From a phage: a DNA stretch of 64,000 bases. The notes below the pieces were generated by a model. It was given only the letters and a program-made list of their open reading frames with translations. It did no database searches and was not told the DNA's origin. Location: the sequence record PZ053912.1. One strand, written 5' to 3'. Numbering within the stretch: the first letter of the stretch is position 1; every line of letters starts with the position of its first letter. The position numbers and the translations under genes were made by a program. Positions 32,367-53,980 of the stretch are shown in pieces.

Positions 32367-33353
32367 TCATTTATAGTATGAATTGTGGTTTTCTAAGTAG
32401 ACTTGCTCAAGGAAGTCATCCCAGAAACTCATATCTACTTTTTGTTGCATACCATTCTTGGCAGCTTGTTCTGACGCATGTTCAACTTGGTCAACGATAT
32501 CTTCTAGGAATTCTTGTACAGTTTTAAACGTATGTTTACCAAGCTTAACATCGAGAATAAATGGAGCATCCTGAAGTGGGTAAACCAGGTCGCCGGTTTT
32601 GTAAATTTCCAATAGTTGAAGTCCACCGCGACATGCATGACTCAGTGCTTTCCAGTCAATACCTTCGTTAGCTTCTGCCTTACGAGCACGTTCACCATAG
32701 TTCTCTTCCAGTTTAACCAGGATGGCATTGAACTCTTTATTGGTTAACGTGTCTTGGAATTTACGGTCTAACAGATTATAGAATGTTTGCTTACCTGTTT
32801 TCTCGTTTTCGGTTTCAACCCATGAAGCAAATTCACCTACAGGCAGAACATTCTTCATATGTGATAAACGAATTACTGCACCATTATCAAAGTATTGTCC
32901 CCATTCATTAGAACGTTTAAGGGCTTGACGAAGAACAGCCAGTCGAGAACCCTTGACACCGTATTTAGAAGCTTGCTTACGGACATACCCTAAATAAGAT
33001 TTCATGTTAGTGGTATAGAAACGAGACCTGTTGTCTTGAATATACTTCCATACATCAGGCAAATCGGATTTAACTACTAAACTTGGCGGAGTGTGAAGCA
33101 TATCTAATGCGACAGTTTCACCATCCGCAGCTAGTTTAAAGAAATATTTGAGACTATACAACTCATGGTCCACGTCGTCTTTTGTGTTCTTAGAAGATGT
33201 GTTATTCGTGTTCTTGCTCATGTGTTCTTTAACGTTACCGGTCAAGATATCACGAGCATGAGGGACATAAATTTCTTTAAAATCGACGTCAGATTCAGGA
33301 GTAGACGTTCCATAAAGGTGGCTACCAAAGTAAGCCTTAACAATCGTTTTCAT
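32367..33353 (-). CDS. Nucleotidyltransferase-fold protein (pol-beta superfamily-like)
   Basis: 328 aa; N-terminal GSHLYGTSTPESDVDF resembles the G[SG]...DxD nucleotidyltransferase signature. Confidence 0.5.
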   Translation of the reverse strand: MKTIVKAYFGSHLYGTSTPESDVDFKEIYVPHARDILTGNVKEHMSKNTNNTSSKNTKDDVDHELYSLKYFFKLAADGETVALDMLHTPPSLVVKSDLPDVWKYIQDNRSRFYTTNMKSYLGYVRKQASKYGVKGSRLAVLRQALKRSNEWGQYFDNGAVIRLSHMKNVLPVGEFASWVETENEKTGKQTFYNLLDRKFQDTLTNKEFNAILVKLEENYGERARKAEANEGIDWKALSHACRGGLQLLEIYKTGDLVYPLQDAPFILDVKLGKHTFKTVQEFLEDIVDQVEHASEQAAKNGMQQKVDMSFWDDFLEQVYLENHNSYYK

Positions 33354-33826
33354 TATTTAGCCTTATATTCAAGAGTAGGACAGACTTTTTCTTTACGAGC
33401 TTTAAGGTATTCACCTATTAATGATTTCTTACGTTCAATAGGTTCAAGTCCATTTTTAATTCGTTCTTGGTTTTGCGCAATGAGCTCAATTTCTTTATAA
33501 TATTTTCTGTCGTTATATTTGTCTAACAACCAAGACGGACCAATTACCAACCCGGTAGAAATAAAAGCCATGACTGATACCATTAAAATGCCTACACCAA
33601 TTGAGGCCGGAACTAATGTCCATAGACTGCTAAAAACAAAGAATCTAGTTAAAATTTCCTGACCAATGATTATGACTGCTGCTAAAATCGCAAATCCAAT
33701 AATTGAAACAGACAATACTGGGATTAACGTTTTCCAAAAATAAGCACACAACGTTTTCGGGCGATTCCATGTACTATTGAACGCGGCATAAATTTTAAAG
33801 TGCCAAGAGTTTTCATTGATAATCAT
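33353..33826 (-). CDS. Membrane protein, hypothetical
   Basis: 157 aa; multiple hydrophobic spans. Confidence 0.45.
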   Translation of the reverse strand: MIINENSWHFKIYAAFNSTWNRPKTLCAYFWKTLIPVLSVSIIGFAILAAVIIIGQEILTRFFVFSSLWTLVPASIGVGILMVSVMAFISTGLVIGPSWLLDKYNDRKYYKEIELIAQNQERIKNGLEPIERKKSLIGEYLKARKEKVCPTLEYKAK

Positions 33827-33835
33827 AATAATTCC

Positions 33836-34378
33836 TTATTTCAAAGTCGGGATAATAGAATCAAGATAAGCTTTAAGAGCAACTGCTTCATCTTTGTCTA
33901 ATGTAACGATATGTTGACGAAGGTCATCAATTTGACGAATAACTACGACATCACCATCTTCATACGAAGGATTAACGCCTAGGACTGTTGTATAGTCAGG
34001 GTGGTCCTGATTTGTAATAAAAGCATTACGGCATTTAGCCCATTGAAGTTTGGCCTTTTTGGCTGTTTCAGATTCCATTAATTCTTTCACCTTAGTGACG
34101 AATGTTTTCCAATTATTAATAGAAAAACATTCGTCTTCAGTTTCGATATTAACCCCACTATAAAGTCCATGATAAAAACGAACTTGGAGGTCTTCACCAA
34201 TGTTAATTACAGATGCATGGCCGGGTGGATTGAGTTTCAAAATCTTGTCTAGTTCCATAGGAAGAATAGTAGCAGCATCATCTTCTTGTGTCAGAACATA
34301 CACATAACCGCGTTTTTCGATACATAAATCACCAAACAACTCGGTTGTTTCAATTACAGTTTTCATATTATTCACCAA
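33836..34378 (-). CDS. Hypothetical protein
   Basis: 180 aa ORF. Confidence 0.5.
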   Translation of the reverse strand: MVNNMKTVIETTELFGDLCIEKRGYVYVLTQEDDAATILPMELDKILKLNPPGHASVINIGEDLQVRFYHGLYSGVNIETEDECFSINNWKTFVTKVKELMESETAKKAKLQWAKCRNAFITNQDHPDYTTVLGVNPSYEDGDVVVIRQIDDLRQHIVTLDKDEAVALKAYLDSIIPTLK

Positions 34379-34645
34379 TTAAAGTTTCGACAAAATTCAC
34401 CAAAGCGTTCTGGCAAGCATCAACCTGATTTCTATAAAATTAAATAAGATCCATCAATTTATTAGCTTGTTCACGGGTCATTTTACCATACTCGTTTCAA
34501 TAAGATTCACTATGCCGTTTACCATGTTATAAGTAAACATCGGATAATTGTATTGTACTACAACATAAGCGATAAGCAAAAGTTTCATTTTGTTCTCCAT
34601 TTGTTTTGGTAGGATTACTATATCATAGTCCTACCAAGACGTAAA

Positions 34646-34879
34646 CTACCGATTGTGTTTTAAATGTTGATAAAGTTCTTCAACTTGTTTAGGGTCTAAA
34701 ACAATTAAGTCATTTTCTTGGCGAAGATAAATCCATCCCTTATCCCCAGGGCCATTTTTACAAAACATCACCACCATATCGTCATCTTCAGCGCTTTCAG
34801 GTAAAAGTTCAAGTACGCCGTCTTCAGATTTTCCAGTATAATCGTAAAGCATAATATCCTCACATAATCTCGTTAACAT
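34646..34879 (-). CDS. Hypothetical protein
   Basis: 77 aa ORF. Confidence 0.45.
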   Translation of the reverse strand: MLTRLCEDIMLYDYTGKSEDGVLELLPESAEDDDMVVMFCKNGPGDKGWIYLRQENDLIVLDPKQVEELYQHLKHNR

Positions 34880-35038
34880 ACATTTGCAATTCGGTGTGGG
34901 CTTCGGTCATCTTTTTCATAGCTCTGTTAATGTCGATGTCTCCATCTTCGCAACCATGAGCATTTTCCCAATCGGACACCGCATTAGCGTACTCTTCAAT
35001 CAAAAACATTAACTTAGAAATTTTTTCTTTACGTGTCA
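34860..35038 (-). CDS. Small hypothetical protein; start at MTRKEKISK after GAGGAGAA
   Basis: ORF 34860..35108 trimmed; the upstream part is promoter/hairpin sequence. Confidence 0.45.
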
Positions 35039-35043
35039 TAACG

Positions 35044-35095
35044 TTCTCCTCTAGTAAGTAAGATCTACTATAACACAACCTGAGGAGAAGTAAAC
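35044..35095 (-). promoter_or_regulatory. Early promoter (GTTTAC-17-TATAGT) enclosed by 8-bp arms that pair the SD (GAGGAGAA) with an upstream anti-SD
   Basis: Seen directly; arms at 35044-35051 and 35082-35089, -10 at 35067-35072. Confidence 0.5.
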
Positions 35096-35105
35096 TGATA
35101 GATGC

Positions 35106-35135
35106 CAAAAAGCCCCAACCTTTCGGAAGGGGCTT
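35106..35135 (-). terminator. Rho-independent terminator (GCCCC...GGGGC stem plus U5) after the 185-aa gene
   Basis: Seen directly; near-copies at 35729-35757 and 51369-51396. Confidence 0.6.
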
Positions 35136-35138
35136 TGA

Positions 35139-35696
35139 TTAGTTTTTGTAATATCGTAAAGGGTTAATATGGAATGAAAGCATTGCGCGTGGAATAGGAC
35201 GACTCAAAAGACTCTTAAGTTTCCAACCACAGTAAACACGCAGATAAAATGTAATACCACCAACCTTAAGATAAGGTATAGCAGCGAATAATCCCCATGC
35301 CGACTCGTTCCAAACTAAAAGATATCCATGATGTGCCGGATCAGGAGATCCAGATTTAGTTTCGGCGTTGCCTTTATAGTGCCATTCTGATGAAGCTTCG
35401 CGACCTAAAACATGATACGAAAAATTATATGCTTTGTTGCGCCATAGCCAAGCTACGCGTTGAGCATATTTACCTATAACAGGAATTTTACGTATTTTAG
35501 ACCAACGTTCAACATGGCCGCGGTCACCATCGATAGGATTATCGTAAGTCATCATCCAGTCAAAGCCATAAGGTAGTTTACCGGTTTTTTCACTATGGAA
35601 TGGAACTACAAATGGTGCTAGAATAATTGCTAAAATCGCTGCGATCCAATCTATAGGAACAAGAACAACCCAACTTATGTATTTTAAAAATTTCAT
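35139..35696 (-). CDS. Membrane-anchored hypothetical protein, apparently late-expressed
   Basis: 185 aa; N-terminal transmembrane span; TATAAATA late promoter 25 nt upstream. Confidence 0.55.
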   Translation of the reverse strand: MKFLKYISWVVLVPIDWIAAILAIILAPFVVPFHSEKTGKLPYGFDWMMTYDNPIDGDRGHVERWSKIRKIPVIGKYAQRVAWLWRNKAYNFSYHVLGREASSEWHYKGNAETKSGSPDPAHHGYLLVWNESAWGLFAAIPYLKVGGITFYLRVYCGWKLKSLLSRPIPRAMLSFHINPLRYYKN

Positions 35697-35720
35697 ATAT
35701 CCTCTCTTAGTTTACAAGGA

Positions 35721-35728
35721 TATTTATA
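35721..35728 (-). promoter_or_regulatory. T4-type late promoter TATAAATA
   Basis: Exact consensus on the minus strand, immediately downstream of a terminator and about 25 nt before the ATG at 35696. Confidence 0.6.
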
Positions 35729-35757
35729 CAAAAAAGCCCCAACCATAAGGAAGGGGC
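35729..35757 (-). terminator. Rho-independent terminator (GCCCCUUCC...GGUUGGGGC plus U6)
   Basis: Seen directly; follows the stop of gene 35765..36067. Confidence 0.6.
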
Positions 35758-35764
35758 AGGTAAA

Positions 35765-36067
35765 TTAGATAGATGTAGGCTCTAATTTTATTTTCATGAA
35801 CTCTGCAAATTGTCTGGCAGTTTTTATGCCTTGTTCATGACATTCAAATGCATCATCACAGGGGCTATTTTTGTAATGCTTTGCCATATACTTATAGAAT
35901 TTTTCAGAATTCTCGACATTTTGAATTTCAAACAAAGTATATACGTTTTTAATCCCTGATTCCATAAAGTTGTCAAAATATGGGTCGGTGTACGCAGTAC
36001 CAACGATAGGAGTTGTTGCTGCAAAAAACCCCAGCATCGCCATGACAGCTATCGCTCTTAAGGCCAT
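35765..36067 (-). CDS. Secreted or periplasmic small protein
   Basis: 100 aa; N-terminal signal-peptide-like MALRAIAVMAMLGFFAATTPIVGTA. Confidence 0.5.
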   Translation of the reverse strand: MALRAIAVMAMLGFFAATTPIVGTAYTDPYFDNFMESGIKNVYTLFEIQNVENSEKFYKYMAKHYKNSPCDDAFECHEQGIKTARQFAEFMKIKLEPTSI

Positions 36068-36079
36068 ATAGGCCTCCTG

Positions 36080-36292
36080 TTAATTTTGGCCAGTATTTAT
36101 TTTTCGCCTTTGGACGGCCTTAACATCTGTGAGGTATTTTTCCAGCTTGCGCTTGCGTGTATAATCAGCTTTAGAACCAGTTTGACGGATATCCTCGTTT
36201 AAATGAGAAATAGAATGTCCTAATTCTCTTCGGATTTCATCCAGTTGGGTTACAGTAAGATTACGAAGTTGTCTTTCGTTTAATTGCTGCAT
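36080..36292 (-). CDS. Hypothetical protein
   Basis: 70 aa ORF. Confidence 0.4.
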
Positions 36293-36319
36293 ATATACCT
36301 CTTGGTTAGATATTAGTAT

Positions 36320-36901
36320 TTATAACAACCCTGTCAAATCATTCCAATGCTTCCGGCATAATGACACATATCTATCAGTATCACCAATTTCAATTTGACT
36401 GCCATCTGTAATTGGAAGTCCGTCTTCCGTGACTCTAGCTACCATTGTGGCCTTTTTACCACAATGACAGACACCTTTAAGTTCAACAAGCTTATCGGCA
36501 ATAGCCATTAACGCTTGAGAACCTTCAAATAGATTACCTTTAAAATCTGTTCGTAGTCCATATGCCATTACCGGCACATTGTATACGTCAACAATACGAC
36601 TAAGTTGATACACCTTTTCAGTAGTTAAGAATTGAGCTTCGTCAACAAATACACAATGAATATCCTTTTGTGCTGCAGCCCATTTATAGAACTCAAAAAT
36701 ATCCATGTCTTTTGTAATTATATTGGCGTCCTGACGAATACCAATACGAGAGACTATTTCACCTTTTGAATCGCGAGTATCAATAGCCGGTTTAAGAACT
36801 AATACACCCATGCCACGTTCTTTATAGTTATGTGCGGCCGTAAGTAATGAAGCAGACTTACCAGCGTTCATAGCGGCATATGTAAAAATTAAACTAGCCA
36901 T
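36320..36901 (-). CDS. tk: Thymidine kinase
   Basis: 193 aa; Walker A AAMNAGKS; C-terminal Cys pairs CHCG ... LCRKH typical of type II thymidine kinases. Confidence 0.92.
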   Translation of the reverse strand: MASLIFTYAAMNAGKSASLLTAAHNYKERGMGVLVLKPAIDTRDSKGEIVSRIGIRQDANIITKDMDIFEFYKWAAAQKDIHCVFVDEAQFLTTEKVYQLSRIVDVYNVPVMAYGLRTDFKGNLFEGSQALMAIADKLVELKGVCHCGKKATMVARVTEDGLPITDGSQIEIGDTDRYVSLCRKHWNDLTGLL

Positions 36902-37091
36902 AAGAGTCCTTAGTTAAATTTTCTAAATATGTTTCTAAATCATTTTCAGCTTTATCGATAGATTTTACTAATTCGTAGTATGTTTCAGCATCTCCATAAT
37001 CCGAAGCCAATTCAAAAGATAAATCTCGTTCTAAACTAATAATTTCGCTGATTAAAAATCGTATTTCATTCTTTTGTTCGCGAGTAATCAT
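36894..37091 (-). CDS. Hypothetical protein
   Basis: 65 aa ORF. Confidence 0.4.
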   Translation of the reverse strand: MITREQKNEIRFLISEIISLERDLSFELASDYGDAETYYELVKSIDKAENDLETYLENLTKDSYG

Positions 37092-37294
37092 AAGGAATTT
37101 ATATAATCAATAAGTTCTTGTTCTTTATCGTCGAAATCTTTACACAGTTCTTCGTATTCATCGGTATTAAAAGGACCGCATTCATCGCAAACTTTTTCCA
37201 ATTCACTATTTTTATCCATAACTTCGTGAATAAGAGAAAACAGTCTGTCTTTTTGTTCTTTACTTAAACTCATAACCATGTAACCTTTAAGCAA
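37088..37294 (-). CDS. Hypothetical protein
   Basis: 68 aa ORF. Confidence 0.4.
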   Translation of the reverse strand: MLKGYMVMSLSKEQKDRLFSLIHEVMDKNSELEKVCDECGPFNTDEYEELCKDFDDKEQELIDYINSL

Positions 37295-37497
37295 TATTCT
37301 TCTACATGTTGTTTACGACCTTTCTTATCAATAAAGGTATATTCAACGAATGTTCCAATATAGTCTTTATCTACATCATGTGGACTATTAATTGGGCATT
37401 TAGTACGGCAAATACGTTCCCATTGACGAATAATTACTGCCTTATTCTTTGGGTCATATGGATGTGGATAATGTATATTCATAATAATGGTTCCCAA
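37270..37497 (-). CDS. Hypothetical protein
   Basis: 75 aa ORF. Confidence 0.4.
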   Translation of the reverse strand: MGTIIMNIHYPHPYDPKNKAVIIRQWERICRTKCPINSPHDVDKDYIGTFVEYTFIDKKGRKQHVEEYCLKVTWL

Positions 37498-37976
37498 TCA
37501 ACAATCACAATTTCTAGTTTAGTGGAATACGTATCTAAAATCTCTTCGATGACATCCCAGTTTCCACCACCGATACCTGCACCAATTCTTGGCATATAAA
37601 TTACAGGCTTTGTTATCTTATTCTTTCCGAATTCATTTAATTCTATTATACAATTCATTAAAGCAGAGTACTCAAAATTAGGTCCCGGCTCAAACTGCGT
37701 ATAAAGATTAAAGCAATAAGCTTTATGGGTCTTAAAATATTTTTCATAAACTGAATAAGTCCCGAGTTTAGACTCGTCTCCGAATTCGGTTTGAAGTTTA
37801 TCGGCTTCTAAAATTTTTGGATAAGCCTTTGCTAATTGTCCTGCCACACCAGCGCCCATTGTATGAAAACAATTACACCCATGAGCAATATTATTACCTT
37901 TAGAAAACAGGGCGACAATATCGCCCTTGATATAGTTTTTAATCACTTGCTGCAAGTCCTCTAGTATAAGAGTCAA
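37479..37976 (-). CDS. Macro-domain protein (ADP-ribose binding/processing)
   Basis: 165 aa; GNNIAHGCNCFHTMGAGVAGQLAKAYP and IGAGIGGGNW resemble macro-domain glycine-rich loops. Confidence 0.6.
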   Translation of the reverse strand: MTLILEDLQQVIKNYIKGDIVALFSKGNNIAHGCNCFHTMGAGVAGQLAKAYPKILEADKLQTEFGDESKLGTYSVYEKYFKTHKAYCFNLYTQFEPGPNFEYSALMNCIIELNEFGKNKITKPVIYMPRIGAGIGGGNWDVIEEILDTYSTKLEIVIVDWEPLL

Positions 37977-38286
37977 CTAGACGGTCCACCATAGAATTGC
38001 ATGCTGCCTTATCTTTAGGTTCCGCCACCGAGCATTCTAATATTTGCCATTTTTTATAGTATCTTTTAATTAAGGTAGACGCCTTGAACCTACTAGACGC
38101 CCCATCTTTTTCTCCGTCTTTATACGCATATAACAATTTTTGTGAAAAATCTACTTTACACTCTTGACTTTTACCACAATAATCAGACGCTGTTCTGTTT
38201 GTATACTCCGTTACATCAGTATATGTAGTATTAGCAAGAGCGTTAAATGAAACCAAGCCAACTATTAAAGCCAACATTTTGGTCAT
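37939..38286 (-). CDS. Secreted small protein
   Basis: 115 aa; signal-peptide-like MTKMLALIVGLVSFNALA. Confidence 0.45.
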   Translation of the reverse strand: MTKMLALIVGLVSFNALANTTYTDVTEYTNRTASDYCGKSQECKVDFSQKLLYAYKDGEKDGASSRFKASTLIKRYYKKWQILECSVAEPKDKAACNSMVDRLVDSYTRGLAASD

Positions 38287-38825
38287 TCTTTTATTTCCAG
38301 TAGTTTATTTGATTTAAGGTAATTAGCCTTTTCTAGGACTTCAGAAGCATATTTACTTCCAGCACTTGTCTTCCATCCCGCATTATATGAGGATATAGCT
38401 TTTCTTATATCCCCATTATGTATATTTAACCAATAAGAAAATTCGATATAAGCCCATCTGGCTGAATTAGACCGCTTAGATAGCATTTTCTTAATTTGGG
38501 CATCAGTCATATTATAACCAAGCTGGTTAATTCTTGCCCTCATTGTTGGTAGATAATTTTGGAACATTCCATACGCATGGTGACCTTTCTTATTTTTAAG
38601 ATTAATACCGGCAGATGATTCCTGCCATAGTATTGCGGCCATTATGTATCCAAGTCCTTTCTTATGCATATTTTCATGCGTTTTAAATTTTCCGTCCTTA
38701 GAAAACTGTTCCCCAAACTGATAAGCATAATTCAAGTTATCGAGTTGGACATTACTAAAAGTATGCTCGGAGCTATGTGCTGATAATGAAAGAGCAAATA
38801 GACCAGCGAGTAGTGCTTTTCTCAT
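38283..38825 (-). CDS. Exported lytic transglycosylase-like protein (SLT domain)
   Basis: 180 aa; signal peptide MRKALLAGLFALSLSAHS; motifs WQESS, AYGMFQ, YNAG. Confidence 0.55.
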   Translation of the reverse strand: MRKALLAGLFALSLSAHSSEHTFSNVQLDNLNYAYQFGEQFSKDGKFKTHENMHKKGLGYIMAAILWQESSAGINLKNKKGHHAYGMFQNYLPTMRARINQLGYNMTDAQIKKMLSKRSNSARWAYIEFSYWLNIHNGDIRKAISSYNAGWKTSAGSKYASEVLEKANYLKSNKLLEIKE

Positions 38826-38833
38826 GTTTACCT

Positions 38834-39292
38834 CTAGATTTTAATCACTGCTTTAGAAGCTTTTCCTGGTAGTCGTTTACTGTTAATAATAGCCATTCTG
38901 CATTGAAGAGTCTTCATTTTGAATGCTGGATTTTCGCGACAAACTGTAAGTCCTAACCAAAGATTTCCATCAGTTATTTCTAAACGGCCTGGACGATATT
39001 CGACACCTTCGACAAAATCTTCATCAACATCTGGACGTGCCGGCATTGATAAAAATTCTGCAACTTCTTTAACATGATTTTTTACTTTACGAAATAATTC
39101 AAAAACGTAATTCTCATCTATTTCTCTCTGGATGGCACGATCTAAGAGATGTTGAGAATACTTGATATGAAAGCCTGGTAGTCCAAGAGACTTTGCAGCA
39201 TCTTTTATACCGGCATTTATTTTGCGGAACTCCGTTTCAAAGATTCGACGGAGTTTATTACGGCGGATAAAAACGTCAGAATTGATAGTCAT
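38834..39292 (-). CDS. regB: RegB sequence-specific endoribonuclease
   Basis: MTINSDVFIRRNKLRR...HIKYSQHLLDRAIQREIDENYVFELF...YRPGRLEITDGNLWLG...CRMAIINSKRLPGKASKAVIK matches recalled T4 RegB. Confidence 0.9.
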   Translation of the reverse strand: MTINSDVFIRRNKLRRIFETEFRKINAGIKDAAKSLGLPGFHIKYSQHLLDRAIQREIDENYVFELFRKVKNHVKEVAEFLSMPARPDVDEDFVEGVEYRPGRLEITDGNLWLGLTVCRENPAFKMKTLQCRMAIINSKRLPGKASKAVIKI

Positions 39293-39300
39293 TTTTGATT

Positions 39301-39350
39301 TCTCCTCTAGTTGACAGGTCTATAGTAACACATCTAGAGGAGAAGTAAAC
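39301..39350 (-). promoter_or_regulatory. regB early promoter (GTTTAC-17-TACTAT) enclosed in a 10-bp hairpin pairing the regB SD with an anti-SD in the promoter spacer
   Basis: Arms UCUCCUCUAG (39334-39343) and CUAGAGGAGA (39301-39310); -10 at 39322-39327. Confidence 0.55.
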
Positions 39351-39354
39351 AACT

Positions 39355-39570
39355 TTATTGATAAAATGGAGTTAAAGCCCAAGATTCTTTAGATACCATA
39401 TCGGCGAAATGCCTCATCTCTTCGATTTGGCGACGACGTTGGTCAGCATAGTCTTCTTCGCCTTCTTCCTTACAATCATCAAGGTCTTCTTCAAGATACT
39501 TTAAGTATTCACTACAAATTTTGTTGACCTTTTCTTGAAAGTCCAATAACCCAGTAATAGTAGAAGCCAT
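39355..39570 (-). CDS. Hypothetical acidic protein
   Basis: 71 aa ORF. Confidence 0.45.
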   Translation of the reverse strand: MASTITGLLDFQEKVNKICSEYLKYLEEDLDDCKEEGEEDYADQRRRQIEEMRHFADMVSKESWALTPFYQ

Positions 39571-39836
39571 TAGTATTTTTCCTCAGGTCGAAATACTGCA
39601 CGGCATGCCCACATGCTGGCTTCTTTTAGATGTTGCTTAGCATACTTAAGAGCCTGCACTGCATCCATATCTTCTTTGGTTTGTTGCTCTGATTCATTTT
39701 CTTTCAAGATATATGCTTCTTCAATCAGAGCATCAAACATCAATCCAAGACGGACTTCTGCATCTTTAATAGCGTTCACTTTACTGATTTTATCATCGGT
39801 ATGCGGCTTGTAGCCTTTGATGTCTTCAATCGACAT
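39570..39836 (-). CDS. Hypothetical protein; start trimmed to MSIEDIKG
   Basis: ORF 39570..40004 overlaps the upstream ORF by 180 nt in another frame. Confidence 0.4.
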   Translation of the reverse strand: MSIEDIKGYKPHTDDKISKVNAIKDAEVRLGLMFDALIEEAYILKENESEQQTKEDMDAVQALKYAKQHLKEASMWACRAVFRPEEKY

Positions 39837-40050
39837 AAGGAATTTCCTCATCGGTGGCAAGGTCATATTCGACCAATTGGATAGGCTCATTAATACCATA
39901 TCCACGTACAGTGATATCGGTTGTCGGATATTTTCCAGTAATATCACCCATTCTAAATGCTTCAATGAATGATTGCTCGCCTGAGCAACTAAACCAGGCG
40001 GCAAAACATTTTAAAACATCTTCAGACCCTTCTATAATCAATTTAGCCAT
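39826..40050 (-). CDS. Hypothetical protein
   Basis: 74 aa ORF. Confidence 0.45.
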   Translation of the reverse strand: MAKLIIEGSEDVLKCFAAWFSCSGEQSFIEAFRMGDITGKYPTTDITVRGYGINEPIQLVEYDLATDEEIPYVD

Positions 40051-40412
40051 TATAGACTCTCAGTAAAGGTACGAGCGATAACATCGCGCTGCTGTTCCGG
40101 AGTCAGAGAGTTAAAGCGAACTGCATAACCGGATACACGGATGGTCAGCTGCGGATATTTTTCCGGATGCTTAACTGCATCTTCCAGAGTTTCACGACGC
40201 AGAACGTTAACGTTCAGGTGTTGACCACCTTCAATTTTAACTTTAGGTTGATGTTCAATTTCAATTTCACGGGCATTCAAACCGTAGAAAATTTCCGGGT
40301 CTACAATAGCGTCTTCTTTAAAAGTCTTAGAGACAATAATCCGGGCTTGAGTACCGTCTTCAAAATAAATAGTGCCTTTATGTGCACCTTCAAGAATTTG
40401 ATATGCTTTCAT
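40050..40412 (-). CDS. Autonomous glycyl-radical cofactor (GrcA/YfiD-like; T4 Y06I-type)
   Basis: 120 aa; C-terminal [43 protein letters not shown] with the RVSGY glycyl-radical motif. Confidence 0.8.
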
Positions 40413-40418
40413 ATAACC

Positions 40419-40727
40419 TCAATTAGAAAATAAATTTATCCAAGATTTTTCTTTAATCAAAAATGGGTCGGAATTAAACGCCATTAAACTTTGAGTGATT
40501 AATCCCTTAAATGGCCCATCAATAAATTCCATTTTGAAATGCGGAATACTAGTCATCAACCGTGCATTAGGAGCAGTACAAAGAACATGCTGCCCTGCGA
40601 ACGGACCTTTAGTCAAACGATATCGTTTAGGTTTAAAATGGTAAATCTCGTAATTTTCTACAAGAGCCCTTTTATTGCATGCTGGGCTGTTATAACAATA
40701 CTCAAAAACTTCAATAGTGGTCATCAT
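40419..40727 (-). CDS. Hypothetical protein
   Basis: ORF 40419..40775; start uncertain. Confidence 0.4.
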   Translation of the reverse strand: MMTTIEVFEYCYNSPACNKRALVENYEIYHFKPKRYRLTKGPFAGQHVLCTAPNARLMTSIPHFKMEFIDGPFKGLITQSLMAFNSDPFLIKEKSWINLFSN

Positions 40728-41263
40728 TGCATTCCAATCACAAAAAATTGAGGACGAGCAATACCGCCTATGCAATATTTGCTTTTGCAGCAGTGCTGTA
40801 CTGATTTAATATGGACATTGTAAATCTTATCCATATCAGGAGCTTTAATAGGCTCGTCAATTATGTATAGAATACGAGAAAGCGTTAATCCACGGAATTT
40901 AGAACCTTCATTGCCAATAAAACTACGGACAGAATCAGTAAATAAACGGAATCGAATATCATCGCTAGAATAACGAGAAAATTCTTTTTTAATGTTGCCA
41001 GCAGAAATTTTAGCATAAGCTGAAGTATTAGAAAGAACAATAACTGTTCCATCGTCGTGCAGCCAATTAGCAGCAAAATTAGTTACTGCAGTGGATTTAC
41101 CTGATTGTCTGCCACCGTCTAAACGAAGTGTACAGTACTGCTTGAGTATGTCTTCAAATGGTGGGACATAACCGTTCTTACAAATTTCTTCTACTCTAGC
41201 ATCAGAATGGTGTGTAAAAGCATTCATCAGGGATAGATAAGGTCCAGTTAAAAATGTTTTCAT
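40724..41263 (-). CDS. P-loop NTPase, hypothetical
   Basis: Walker A GGRQSGKST; start taken at MKTFLTGP after GAGAGAA. Confidence 0.5.
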   Translation of the reverse strand: MKTFLTGPYLSLMNAFTHHSDARVEEICKNGYVPPFEDILKQYCTLRLDGGRQSGKSTAVTNFAANWLHDDGTVIVLSNTSAYAKISAGNIKKEFSRYSSDDIRFRLFTDSVRSFIGNEGSKFRGLTLSRILYIIDEPIKAPDMDKIYNVHIKSVQHCCKSKYCIGGIARPQFFVIGMQ

Positions 41264-41535
41264 TTTGTTCTCTCTAAGTTTGGGCCATTCCATGGCACAT
41301 GAATTGTCCATTTCTGTATTTACCCATTACCGCACTTGGGCTCGACCTTATTACAGGTTGGCGGGAATCCCTCATAGAATCATGAGGTCCAGCTTGTTCC
41401 CATGTTATTTGAATGTAAATATTTTTGCCTTAATACTTATACCAGTGTGGCTTCATTAAAATTTTTTCATCGAGTCATTTTACCTCTCCAAGTAATTATG
41501 ATTATACTATCACAATTCTAGGAGAAAGTAAACTG
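41264..41535 (-). other. 272-nt untranslated leader with an early promoter-like element near 41500-41530, a 3-codon uORF and internal hairpins
   Basis: No ORF longer than 8 codons on the minus strand; hairpin CCUCAU-GAUUCU-AUGAGG. Confidence 0.35.
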
Positions 41536-41838
41536 TTATTTACCTTTAATTACTTTAGCTGCTTCGATAGCCGCTTGCTGAAGGTCATCCATAGACATAC
41601 CGAATTTAGAAGCAAAGTTATCAATTTTCTTTTCAACAGCATTCAAAGGCTTGGCCTGTTTACCTTCATTAGCGCCAGGAAGAGCGAGAATACGCTCTTT
41701 GTCAATATAAAGGCTTACAAGTTTCTTACGGTCTTTATCGGACAAATCGTGAAATGAATGGGCCTTTTTATTTATAGCGGCTTCTAATTTACCTGCACTC
41801 ACTCGCGCTTCAGTAATAAATTCTTGATATGTTTTCAT
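41536..41838 (-). CDS. ipIII: Internal head protein IPIII-like, with N-terminal capsid-targeting sequence
   Basis: MKTYQEFITEARVSAGKLEAAINKKAHSFHDL...; the leader MKTYQEFI-x-E is the recalled T4 CTS. Confidence 0.8.
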   Translation of the reverse strand: MKTYQEFITEARVSAGKLEAAINKKAHSFHDLSDKDRKKLVSLYIDKERILALPGANEGKQAKPLNAVEKKIDNFASKFGMSMDDLQQAAIEAAKVIKGK

Positions 41839-41929
41839 TTTTGTTTCCTTGTTTGTTTTGATAGAGTAATTATACCATATTAATACTTAAGCGTAAACTG
41901 TTTAAGCTTTACCATCGCAACCTTTTTCC

Positions 41930-42343
41930 TTAGTAAATTGATTTACCATAGTATTTGTACCAAGTAGGACGTTGAGCAATTTTTTCATCTAAACGAGCTT
42001 GACTTATCGCAATGGACGCTTCGGTCGGGACATAATTATTACGAAATTCGGCAGGGATGTCGGAAATATCTTGGACAGTCGTGTCCTTGATTTTGAAACC
42101 ACGTTTCAAGCATTCAGCGATTAGCTCGATTTGACGTAAACGTAAAAATTCGAGTTTGTCGTAAAAGAATGTTACATGACCTGTGCCTAAGATAAATGTC
42201 GGGGAGATTTTAAAATCCTTTACACGTTTACCGTTTTGAACATGTTTACGGACTGCACCAAATACGCGTGGTAATTCACGATACTCAGCCATAAGATGTT
42301 GGTCGGTCAGTTCAGAAACAAGTGTTAAATTGATACGAGTCAT
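41930..42343 (-). CDS. denV: Endonuclease V (pyrimidine-dimer DNA glycosylase) DenV
   Basis: [34 protein letters not shown]... matches recalled T4 DenV; start at internal ATG after GGAGGAA. Confidence 0.9.
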
Positions 42344-42346
42344 AAT

Positions 42347-42400
42347 TTCCTCCAAGTAGTTGATGAATGTATAGTATCAAAACCCTTGGAGGAAGTAAAC
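42347..42400 (-). promoter_or_regulatory. denV early promoter (-10 TACTAT at 42371-42376) enclosed in a 10-bp hairpin pairing the denV SD with an anti-SD at the -35/spacer
   Basis: Arms ttcctccaag (42347-42356) and cttggaggaa (42385-42394) on the plus strand. Confidence 0.5.
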
Positions 42401-42401
42401 A

Positions 42402-42683
42402 CTATTTTTCTGAAGCGCCTGAAATATATTTTTCAAGACGTTGTTTCATCAGCGAGCCATTCTTAGCGATTTCTTCCGGTTTATCACACATACGCAACAA
42501 GGCTTCAAGCTTAACGATATCACTGGTGCGCTCAAATTTGCGAGTATCTATCTTACTAGCAAGTTCAGAAATACGTGCTAATAGACTTTCAGCTTCAACC
42601 AAAGCTGCACCTAGCTTGGTTGCAAATGTGTCAGTAGCTTCGTTAAGAATAGATTCTGATAAAAATTCACTATATGTTTTCAT
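42402..42683 (-). CDS. ipII: Internal head protein IPII-like, with capsid-targeting sequence
   Basis: [15 protein letters not shown]...; start at the internal Met of ORF 42402..42698. Confidence 0.75.
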
Positions 42684-43168
42684 ATATACGCTTTCCAAGT
42701 TCCTGTTTTAAATGTTGAGATTACGCGTTTCGCGCGATTAGGTGTCTGACGATACCATTTAGATTGGGCTAGATTTACTGCCGCTTCATCCCAACGTTTC
42801 TGTTGAAGCATACGAAGAGAATTAGTAAAACCTGCGACGCCTGCTACACCCATTTGGAAGACCATATTGACCAATGCACATCGACGAACTGCATCTAAAG
42901 AATCATATACCGGTTTAAGTTTAGCATTACCCAAGATTCCGCGAACGGCTTTATCAACGTCTTCATTAAATAGCTTTTCAGCCTCATCAAGGGTAATTGT
43001 ACCGTTGCATTTACGACCGATCATTCTGTCAAGTTCAGCTTTAGCTACGGCTAAAGACGGGTTCTTTGTTACTAAATGGCCTATGCCAATCGTCCAAAAG
43101 CCTTCGGTGTCTTTGTATAAAGTCAGTCTAAGACCTTCGTCATTACGAAGCATTTCAAATATATTCAT
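42680..43168 (-). CDS. e: Endolysin (T4 lysozyme, gene e)
   Basis: [32 protein letters not shown]... matches recalled T4 lysozyme, including the catalytic Glu and the DTEG block. Confidence 0.95.
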
Positions 43169-43170
43169 AA

Positions 43171-43194
43171 TACCTCCCACGTTTATAGGAGGTA
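43171..43194 (-). promoter_or_regulatory. Hairpin sequestering the gene e ribosome-binding site, with a late-promoter-like TATAAACG in the loop
   Basis: Arms UACCUCC and GGAGGUA, loop UAUAAACGUG; the same arrangement is documented for T4 gene e. Confidence 0.6.
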
Positions 43195-43202
43195 TTTATT
43201 AC

Positions 43203-43661
43203 TTATAGGAGGGTAGTGAGCACCTTATATAATGATTTGCCCATTACATATTCCCATTGAGAAGGTTTAATTAAAGCGAATGCATCAAATTCAGGAATCT
43301 GTCGTCCGTCTGGGAATGTATGATAGGAATTACAAACACTGTTTCTGAATTGCTCGTGCTCTACAGGGATGGTATATAGGAACAGATGAATATTCTTATT
43401 GTCTGAGTAATGATGTTCACCTAGGTCTTTCAGGAAGGCAGGGTCATATTGTGTAAACCCAGTTTCTTCTTCGCATTCGCGAATAGCGGCTTCAATAGGA
43501 GATTCGGCGGGCTCGACACGTCCTTTAGGAATATCCCACCGATGAGCTAAAGAACCTTTAGGACGAGAACCAGTTACACGCCCCATGAATAATTCTTTAT
43601 CTTCGGTAAGGAAAATAATACCGGCTGATAGTTCTTTCACTTTATTTTTCTTACTCATCAT
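43203..43661 (-). CDS. nudE: Nudix hydrolase NudE
   Basis: 152 aa; Nudix box GRVEPAESPIEAAIRECEEETG. Confidence 0.85.
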   Translation of the reverse strand: MMSKKNKVKELSAGIIFLTEDKELFMGRVTGSRPKGSLAHRWDIPKGRVEPAESPIEAAIRECEEETGFTQYDPAFLKDLGEHHYSDNKNIHLFLYTIPVEHEQFRNSVCNSYHTFPDGRQIPEFDAFALIKPSQWEYVMGKSLYKVLTTLL

Positions 43662-43902
43662 CTCGGTCCCATGATTTAGCCATTAATTCGGACATAAATT
43701 CTTCAATGCGCGTTTCTTTAGATGGACTTTCACTATTAGAGACCGCAAGTTTGTAATCTGCAATAGGACAGAACATATCAAGGTCCATATTAAGATCGTC
43801 TTTGATTTTTTCTTCTGACACGTCTTTATCGTATGTGTACAGATAACTATCACATGATTCTGATTTAATGTAAATTGCTATACTCATCTCAAATTCCTGC
43901 AT
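43651..43902 (-). CDS. Hypothetical acidic protein
   Basis: 83 aa ORF. Confidence 0.45.
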   Translation of the reverse strand: MQEFEMSIAIYIKSESCDSYLYTYDKDVSEEKIKDDLNMDLDMFCPIADYKLAVSNSESPSKETRIEEFMSELMAKSWDRDDE

Positions 43903-44375
43903 TCGGTAATAAAACGTTCAACTTCATTATTCTTGGCCTTTATCTTGGCTTTATGTTCTTGTAAACTACTTTTAATAAGATTAATAATGATGGCGGCGGT
44001 ACCGCCGCCAATGATGCCACCAACAACACTTATGATACTAGATGCTAATAAGATGGCAATAATATCAACAAAACCGAAAGAACTCACCTTAGTACTGAAA
44101 AACCATATAGACGGTACAAATATAATCCATCCTGTTATCCATTGGCACTTATTGAAAAACTTTTCAAGCTCAGCTTGAGTTGTTCGTATTACTTCATCGA
44201 TAGGTTGATATCCATTAATGTATCTGTTCACGATAATACCTGCTGGCTGGTCGATTTTAAATTCTTGGCAAATATGTTTCACTAAGTAGGATGGACATCC
44301 TGTCCAATCTACTGAATAGTATGAAATACCTTCGTTGCCATCGTCTATATTAGACCAATATGTTTTGCTAATCAT
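43884..44375 (-). CDS. Membrane protein, hypothetical
   Basis: 163 aa; central hydrophobic spans. Confidence 0.45.
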   Translation of the reverse strand: MISKTYWSNIDDGNEGISYYSVDWTGCPSYLVKHICQEFKIDQPAGIIVNRYINGYQPIDEVIRTTQAELEKFFNKCQWITGWIIFVPSIWFFSTKVSSFGFVDIIAILLASSIISVVGGIIGGGTAAIIINLIKSSLQEHKAKIKAKNNEVERFITECRNLR

Positions 44376-53716: not shown

Positions 53717-53980
53717 TTAAATACCAGCTTCGCGTTTAACATAATCGACGTAAGCTTGGATAGCTTTCTTGCTGGTAATTTTTACCTGACCACGACCATT
53801 GCCTTCTTTAGAGTTTTTCTTAACAACTACATTACCATCTTTAACACCCCATACATGGACGTAAGTACCGATGTTTCGGTCGTAGAACATTGCATGGTCG
53901 TTGTTGTAAGAGAATGATTCGTAGTTCTCTGTCAGAGTAGAAGATTGAGATTCGGCGATAAATTCTTTATAGGTTTTCAT
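53717..53980 (-). CDS. Internal head protein IPI-like, with capsid-targeting sequence
   Basis: 87 aa; MKTYKEFIAESQS is a near-consensus CTS; small and basic as expected for an injected internal protein. Confidence 0.65.
   Translation of the reverse strand: MKTYKEFIAESQSSTLTENYESFSYNNDHAMFYDRNIGTYVHVWGVKDGNVVVKKNSKEGNGRGQVKITSKKAIQAYVDYVKREAGI

Follow-up and report, generated by a model that had tools for sequence, protein, structure and literature searches.

A predicted Shine-Dalgarno-masking hairpin in the early promoter of mobD.2a of a Mosigvirus phage, and its sister modules at regB and denV

In phage T4, the translation of some genes depends on where their RNA was started. For gene e and I-TevI, RNA made from an internal promoter is devoid of the 5' arm of a hairpin and is translated, while the longer RNA is folded and silent (PMC3014915, section 29). 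The hairpins of e, soc, 49 and I-TevI, together with that of Aeh1 mobE and the predicted ones of I-TevII and I-TevIII, have the Shine-Dalgarno sequence (SD) or the AUG in the 3' arm, and the proximal transcript does not have the 5' arm. A like arrangement is predicted at the early gene mobD.2a described here, where the SD is part of the helix. However, e, soc, 49 and I-TevI have late promoters (TATAAATA, gp55) or middle ones, by which translation is turned on late, whereas the internal promoter at mobD.2a (GTTTAC-17-TATAGT), which we predict from its sequence, is of the early sigma-70 type.

The layout of the mobD.2a cassette is also that of the promoter-early stem-loop (PeSL) cassettes of T4-like phages (Arbiol et al. 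2010, PMC2839356; Comeau et al. 2014, PMC4122927). The early promoter consensus of PeSLs in the T4/PST group is TTTACW-N17-TAYWAT (PMC4122927), with which the mobD.2a promoter, GTTTACT-N17-TATAGT, agrees. In both, a stem-loop or terminator is located just upstream of a TTTAC-type promoter, and an SD and an ATG follow at a fixed distance at the 3' end. Both also lie in a hyperplastic region of small ORFs with an indel, which at mobD.2a is a 185-aa gene between repeated terminators. In the PeSL papers the stem-loop is given the roles of terminator or attenuator and of recombination substrate; pairing between the promoter spacer and the SD is outside their definition, and the words 'ribosome' and 'translation' are absent from the 2010 paper (PMC2839356).

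Our literature text searches found no description of SD hairpins at early promoters, and the reviews give only cases with late or middle promoters. Valerie et al. in 1986 (Nucleic Acids Res 14:8637) reportedly pointed out possible stem-loops before ipIII, ipII, denV and orf61.9, the last of which is regB. In the transposon IS10/Tn10, Davis, Simons and Kleckner are said to have described in 1985 a 'fold-back inhibition' of transposase translation in transcripts from external promoters. As predicted for mobD.2a, a sigma-70 promoter lies between the arms, only the RNA started outside carries the masking arm, and the gene is insulated from read-through. IS10/Tn10 is, however, a transposon that has no sequence relationship with mobD.2a, and the analogy is a functional one only.

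Anatomy and predicted folding of the mobD.2a cassette

We analysed a stretch of 64,000 nucleotides of phage DNA (sequence record PZ053912.1; the window). It comes from a Mosigvirus, an RB69/JS09-like T-even phage, and the 1.15 kb around the hairpin matches 175 phage records, the best of them with 96-98% identity. The early genes follow the order known from T4 and are encoded by the minus strand: tk, rI.1, rI, a 185-aa gene (DUF7338), the hairpin cassette and a 59-aa gene, which is annotated as mobD.2a in RB69. The elements of the cassette, in the direction of transcription, are the following.

35136-35109, with a T run to 35107, minus strand: intrinsic terminator; the stem AAAGCCCC/GGGGCTTT encloses a CC/GG pair and the loop GAAA
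35095-35090, minus strand: -35 hexamer GTTTAC, the T4 early-promoter consensus (PMC1524935); invariant in 14 relatives
35089-35082, minus strand: 5' arm (anti-SD) TTCTCCTC, the first 8 nt of the 17-nt promoter spacer
35072-35067, minus strand: -10 hexamer TATAGT with TG before it (extended -10), in the hairpin loop
35058-35061, minus strand: predicted transcription start, 6-9 nt past the -10 hexamer, as expected from promoter geometry
35051-35044, minus strand: 3' arm GAGGAGAA, the SD of mobD.2a; invariant in 14 relatives
34860-35039, minus strand: mobD.2a homologue of 59 aa, with its ATG at 35039-35037; Pfam DUF7438 / phrog_2758

An earlier note on this DNA had described 8-bp arms with a 30-nt loop bracketing a GTTTAC-17-TATAGT promoter, and we found all these elements on the minus strand. 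By an inverted-repeat search, TTCTCCTC and GAGGAGAA form eight perfect pairs with 30 nt between them. The 5' arm begins directly 3' of GTTTAC, the spacer between the two hexamers is 17 nt long, and the promoter is also listed by a promoter scan of the window. The downstream arm is the SD of the gene, as the note had it: four nucleotides (CGTT) separate the arm from the ATG, and the GGAG core ends 6 nt before the ATG. The gene end given there (35038) was one base short of 35039. Judged from promoter geometry, the transcription start would fall ~22 nt downstream of the 5' arm, which leaves a predicted leader of ~21 nt without that arm.

The whole element, comprising terminator, promoter, SD and ATG in that order, is ~60 nt long. 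The distance from GTTTAC to ATG is 59 nt; when 15 early cassettes were compared, 13 of them had a distance of 59-63 nt. A position immediately after a rho-independent terminator, also proposed in the note, was borne out: the terminator stem is followed by five Ts at 35111-35107, its hairpin is 11 nt upstream of the -35 hexamer, and the related GenBank record SA35RD (OL960577) has a rho-independent terminator and a T4 early promoter annotated at the same place. Among the 14 relatives the stems of the terminator are invariant and its loop is variable (GAAA/TTAT/TTAC). In the coding part of the ortholog alignment, four of five variable columns are third-codon positions. We dismissed an 82-aa TTG-initiated ORF (34860-35108) as an artefact, since it runs through the promoter. 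For positions 33000-44000, nothing in Rfam matched at E<=1.

The region upstream of the cassette carries a second copy of this terminator. One copy (35757-35730) follows the rI stop codon, the other (35136-35107) precedes the mobD.2a promoter, and between them lie a late-type TATAAATA at 35728-35721 and the 185-aa gene, in this order. The region of the 185-aa gene (35139-35767, minus strand) looks like an inserted cassette. Only 23 of the 175 related records carry most of it, and in RB69-type genomes rI is directly followed by the single terminator.

The isolated mobD.2a hairpin has a predicted free energy of -13.2 kcal/mol. When a 155-nt read-through RNA was folded, seven of the eight pairs had probabilities of 0.95-0.99 (0.56-0.99 with the eighth included) and two more pairs formed across a one-base bulge. 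These predictions suggest that the helix should form and should dominate the ensemble in read-through RNA. As a measure of masking, we compared the cost of opening positions -14 to +3 in the read-through RNA with that in the RNA predicted to start at the gene's own promoter. The predicted cost for the mobD.2a ribosome site was ~10.5 kcal/mol in the former and ~3.3 kcal/mol in the latter; the 5' arm would be present only in RNA started upstream, and the own-promoter RNA would have no anti-SD. This difference ranks third among the 18 early promoter-gene pairs of the window, after those of regB (15.4 versus 4.2 kcal/mol) and denV (13.9 versus 2.9 kcal/mol). In 12 of the 18 pairs the two costs differ by less than ~3 kcal/mol.

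In the mechanism that we propose, polymerase at the mobD.2a promoter would start past the anti-SD and produce an RNA with an open ribosome site. As this internal promoter is early, translation is predicted to be confined to the early burst. An RNA started further upstream and passing the terminator would carry both arms, and the hairpin of about -13 kcal/mol would bury the SD, so that mobD.2a would not be translated from the folded read-through RNA. Candidate sources of such RNA are the early or middle tk and rI transcripts, or the late promoter before the 185-aa gene; the late-type TATAAATA at that place makes late RNA leaking through the terminator a plausible target. The terminator would thus limit read-through, and whatever RNA passes would then be masked. 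The added benefit of the mask may be small, since the terminator already limits read-through. We lean, with modest confidence, towards reading the locus as an early cassette in which the start of the promoter spacer masks the SD in read-through RNA, mobD.2a being translated only from RNA of its own promoter.

Sister modules at regB and denV

A scan of the window for perfect stems of at least 7 bp that include an SD gave seven stems, all on the minus strand. Three of them share one architecture, with the 5' arm right after GTTTAC. These are the mobD.2a hairpin (8 bp) and the stems at 42400 (10 bp) and 39350 (11 bp), which belong to denV and regB.

39350-39292, minus strand: regB module, GTTTAC, 5' arm TTCTCCTCTAG at 39344-39334, 3' arm and SD CTAGAGGAGAA at 39310-39300, 11 bp
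42400-42343, minus strand: denV module, GTTTAC, 5' arm TTCCTCCAAG at 42394-42385, 3' arm and SD CTTGGAGGAA at 42356-42347, 10 bp

The proteins are 91% (denV) and 76% (regB) identical to those of T4. As a positive control, the scan recovered the gene e hairpin with its late promoter in the window, and the same scan on T4 recovered the known hairpins of gene 49 and I-TevII. In the window, the gene e (lysozyme) leader at 43196-43169 (minus strand) has the hairpin AATACCTCC/GGAGGTATT, with a late-promoter-like TATAAGTAATAAATA stretch at and just upstream of the 5' arm. T4 has the early-promoter design at regB (TTTTCCTCTTGACTG/CAGTTAAGAGGAGAA), denV (TCTCCTGTAG/CTACAGGAGA) and nrdC.8, and the regB and denV leaders of T4 and its relatives are identical to that of mobD.2a in architecture and register.

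We compared the regB and denV loci of T4-like phages from IMG/VR. The arms were observed to differ between lineages and yet to remain complementary (TTCTCCTCTAGTTG/CAACTAGAGGAGAA, ATCTCCTTTTAGT/ACTAAAAGGAGAT, ATCCTCATTTG/CAAATGAGGAT and ATCTCCGTTTG/CAAACGGAGAT are examples). At regB, changes had occurred on both sides in 12 of 15 pairs. The covariation score at regB was 0.328, compared to 0.142 in shuffles (0/500 as high) and 0.07-0.11 with slid partners, for arm segments anchored on the GGAG core, whose register was fitted to the helix and is thus biased in favour of covariation. These anchored segments replaced a plain MAFFT alignment of the regB leaders, in which the 3' arms were out of register. 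Cognate arms paired better than non-cognate ones in 5000 of 5000 permutations, both for regB and for denV. G-U pairs were found on the sense strand only, which points to pairing of RNA and not of DNA.

In nearly all the helices of at least 7 bp that have an arm in the spacer, the 5' arm follows the -35 hexamer at a distance of 0-3 nt. The spacer is the sole stretch of the cassette that is both upstream of the start and free to vary, and this explains the constant register. A second variant of the denV leader was seen in eight IMG/VR loci (L061, L067, L068, L075-L077, L083 and L085), where the 5' arm overlaps the -10 hexamer and the discriminator and the loop is 8-12 nt; such leaders solve the problem of masking the SD with a different structure. 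The predicted start lies downstream of the whole 5' arm in the spacer variant, and of all but at most 3 nt of it where the arm overlaps the -10 hexamer. A 5' arm so placed matches the need of the masking model for a proximal transcript without it. Taken together, these sequence comparisons indicate that the promoter-embedded SD hairpin is a real design and is under selection as a class.

The upstream stop codon is 7-10 nt before the 5' arm at regB and denV, and a terminating ribosome could open the helix there, giving translational coupling. At mobD.2a it is 50 nt away, and therefore coupling cannot apply to this gene.

Several other structures were observed in the window. Around the promoter of an 82-aa gene (21322-21265, minus strand), a two-part helix, TCCTC/GAGGA plus TAGATG/CATCTA, was predicted to raise the opening cost to 7.3 kcal/mol in read-through RNA against 1.3 kcal/mol in the gene's own transcript, and this gene is possibly a fourth masked early gene. 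In the tk.2/tk.3 region (37338-37283, minus strand), the SD of a 63-aa gene is paired, through the 7-bp stem ACCTTTA/TAAAGGT, with coding sequence that lies 42 nt further upstream. This stem is conserved between the window phage and T4 (T4 start codon at ~60722) and may reflect translational coupling.

At least seven other minus-strand promoters (54044, 53714, 49799, 46989, 45694, 34646 and 30852) have GTTTAC and a 6-10 bp inverted repeat bracketing the -10 hexamer. These repeats have one arm in the spacer and the second around +1 to +10, frequently as AGTCCTATCAA or AGACCTATCAA, and the SD is untouched. T4 ipII and ipIII carry longer versions of them. At 41533-41470 (minus strand), TTGGAGAGGTAAAATGACTCGATGA comes after an early promoter that is ipIII-like; this sequence resembles the SD and first codons of denV (ATGACTCG...) and is ended by a stop codon; this fragment is possibly a scar of cassette recombination. 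In one IMG/VR locus (L074), denV itself lies directly behind the ipIII-like type of promoter.

Chance and descent at the mobD.2a position

The complementarity at mobD.2a could also be an unselected by-product: the cassette would descend from one of the regB type, as a relic or a recombinant, its inner pairs having been lost, and any masking would be incidental. We hold this explanation to be rather unlikely, although several properties of the cassettes speak for it. The early promoter-leader cassettes of the window are ~68% alike (median pairwise identity), and the nearest neighbour of the mobD.2a cassette is the regB module, at 77% identity. A sub-family of these cassettes has a pyrimidine-rich spacer start (TTCTCC...), and their SDs are GGAG-rich. 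PeSL cassettes are known to recombine between the -10 hexamer and the SD (PMC2839356). When the promoters were swapped in the predictions, mobD.2a's own promoter tied for fifth of 18, and the regB promoter masked the mobD.2a ribosome site at 16.6 kcal/mol against 10.1 for its own, because the 3' context of mobD.2a, CTAGAGGAGAA, is identical to the full 11-nt regB 3' arm.

The shuffle controls also fit a by-product. Perfect stems of at least 8 bp including an SD number four among the 74 SD-bearing starts on the minus strand; shuffled upstream DNA gave 1.6 such stems on average, and 3 of 200 shuffles reached four. At mobD.2a itself, the local fold (71 nt) has a z of -0.71. When the 48-nt promoter segment upstream of the predicted start was shuffled, the site was masked equally well or better in 51 of 200 trials by dinucleotides and in 38 of 200 by mononucleotides (19-25%), compared to 0-2 of 200 at regB and denV. 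We used the 48-nt segment instead of 80 nt of upstream sequence, as shuffling the latter frees the C-rich arms of the terminator and inflates the null. It follows from the unremarkable mobD.2a shuffles that the pyrimidine-rich composition of the spacer does much of the masking, and taken alone the mobD.2a copy exceeds chance only marginally. The common register is not a matter of chance: at mobD.2a, as in nearly all the regB and denV leaders with a spacer arm, the 5' arm lies 0-3 nt from the -35 hexamer, and this identity with the selected helices argues against a mere by-product.

Conservation of the arms was assessed in 14 Mosigvirus orthologues taken from GenBank phage records (with the 59-aa protein as query, IMG/VR yielded no more than five loci). 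Both arms are unchanged in 12 of the 14, and RB69 and OLB35 are predicted to mask even more strongly (13.0 kcal/mol), which again does not favour a by-product. In the other two, p000v and CCU7, a T-to-G change at 35083 turns the 5' arm into TTCTCCGC. It is uncompensated, and the predicted masking is nearly lost (5.8 versus 3.4 kcal/mol), as a by-product would allow. The arms have one variable column in 16, against 5 in 31 elsewhere outside the two hexamers, a difference that is not significant. Since the arms are near-invariant, covariation among the orthologues is uninformative at mobD.2a. Compensatory changes were found in none of the 14 orthologues for this 8-bp helix, whereas the regB and denV helices are 10-15 bp long, are conserved across genera and have many such changes.

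The mobD.2a helix is restricted to Mosigvirus. In Tequatrovirus, no promoter is dedicated to mobD.2a, and the equivalent terminator-plus-promoter of T4, after rI.-1, drives mobD.5 from a promoter that was mapped by primer extension (PMC1702504, Fig. 5 legend). The SD of T4 mobD.5 is nearly the same (GAGGAGAAC), the spacer is not complementary to it, and the predicted costs of 4.7 versus 3.0 kcal/mol amount to no mask, in keeping with a by-product. The reverse is seen at nrdC.8. The T4 gene (start codon at 53885; locus L017) has an early-promoter SD hairpin, GTTCCTC/GAGGAAC, with opening costs of 16.7 versus 3.5 kcal/mol, while the homologous window promoter, 30852, has no mask; this difference also suits a by-product. 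Masks of this kind thus arise and disappear from one genus to another. Those at regB and denV persist, and others come and go.

The earlier note had concluded that upstream read-through is first limited and then translationally masked. The anatomy, the thermodynamics and the regB and denV modules are in line with this; that the mobD.2a hairpin itself is kept up by selection would be a further step, for which the support at this locus is weak. Even an unselected helix, however, should form and lower translation from long RNAs. The mobD.2a hairpin is a weak example of a device already known in T4.

Other readings, and what the hairpins may mean for T-even phages

The hairpin might act on the RNA and not mainly on translation, by shielding GGAG from RegB or other nucleases, by affecting RNA stability or punctuation, or by attenuation. 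RegB cuts GGAG in early SDs and is inhibited by secondary structure (PMC1702504; PMC3014915), and PeSL stem-loops lowered the expression of a downstream reporter (PMC2839356). The inverted repeats around the -10 hexamer of at least seven other early promoters, in which the SD is untouched, may likewise hint at a general role in read-through. The hairpin was ruled out as an intrinsic terminator, however, as no U run follows the 3' arm. The AACGUUA after the mobD.2a GGAG is a poor match to the RegB/S1 consensus GGAGRAYARAA (PMC1702504), and an SD buried in a helix of -13 kcal/mol must affect initiation regardless. We consider an action of this kind improbable as the main one.

That the inverted repeat works as DNA, being a protein-binding palindrome, a recombination site or an element of promoter strength, is very improbable, even though PeSL cassettes are recombination hot spots (PMC2839356, PMC4122927) and the mobD.2a cassette adjoins the presence/absence polymorphism of the 185-aa gene with its two flanking terminator copies: the arms of the sister modules covary without conservation of their sequence and have G-U pairs on the sense strand only, cruciform extrusion is made less favourable by the loop of 30 nt, and the repeated terminator alone would be enough for recombination.

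We thus return to the masking of the mobD.2a SD in read-through RNA. If this reading is true, changing the 5' arm from TTCTCCTC to TTGAGCTC would restore the expression of mobD.2a from read-through RNA. A more ambitious extension is conceivable, and we offer it only tentatively. The spacer anti-SDs might constitute a layer of early-gene control that is general, selected and as yet undescribed; for a chosen set of genes it would license translation only on the gene's own immediate-early transcript and silence delayed-early, middle and late read-through, persistently at regB and denV and sporadically at nrdC.8, mobD.2a and others; the mobD.2a hairpin would then be functional and shut the gene off once the early promoters are off.

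The stronger result is that of the sister modules, as the hairpins of regB and denV are found across many T4-like phages with abundant compensatory changes. RegB is already known to cut its own SD, and regB now gains a testable translational control. For the annotation of such genes, RNA abundance across them need not mirror protein output. If the hairpins are functional, T-even phages use one device both ways, to delay late genes and to confine some early genes to the first minutes, and the hairpin would also insulate mobile promoter-gene cassettes from the transcription of their neighbours.
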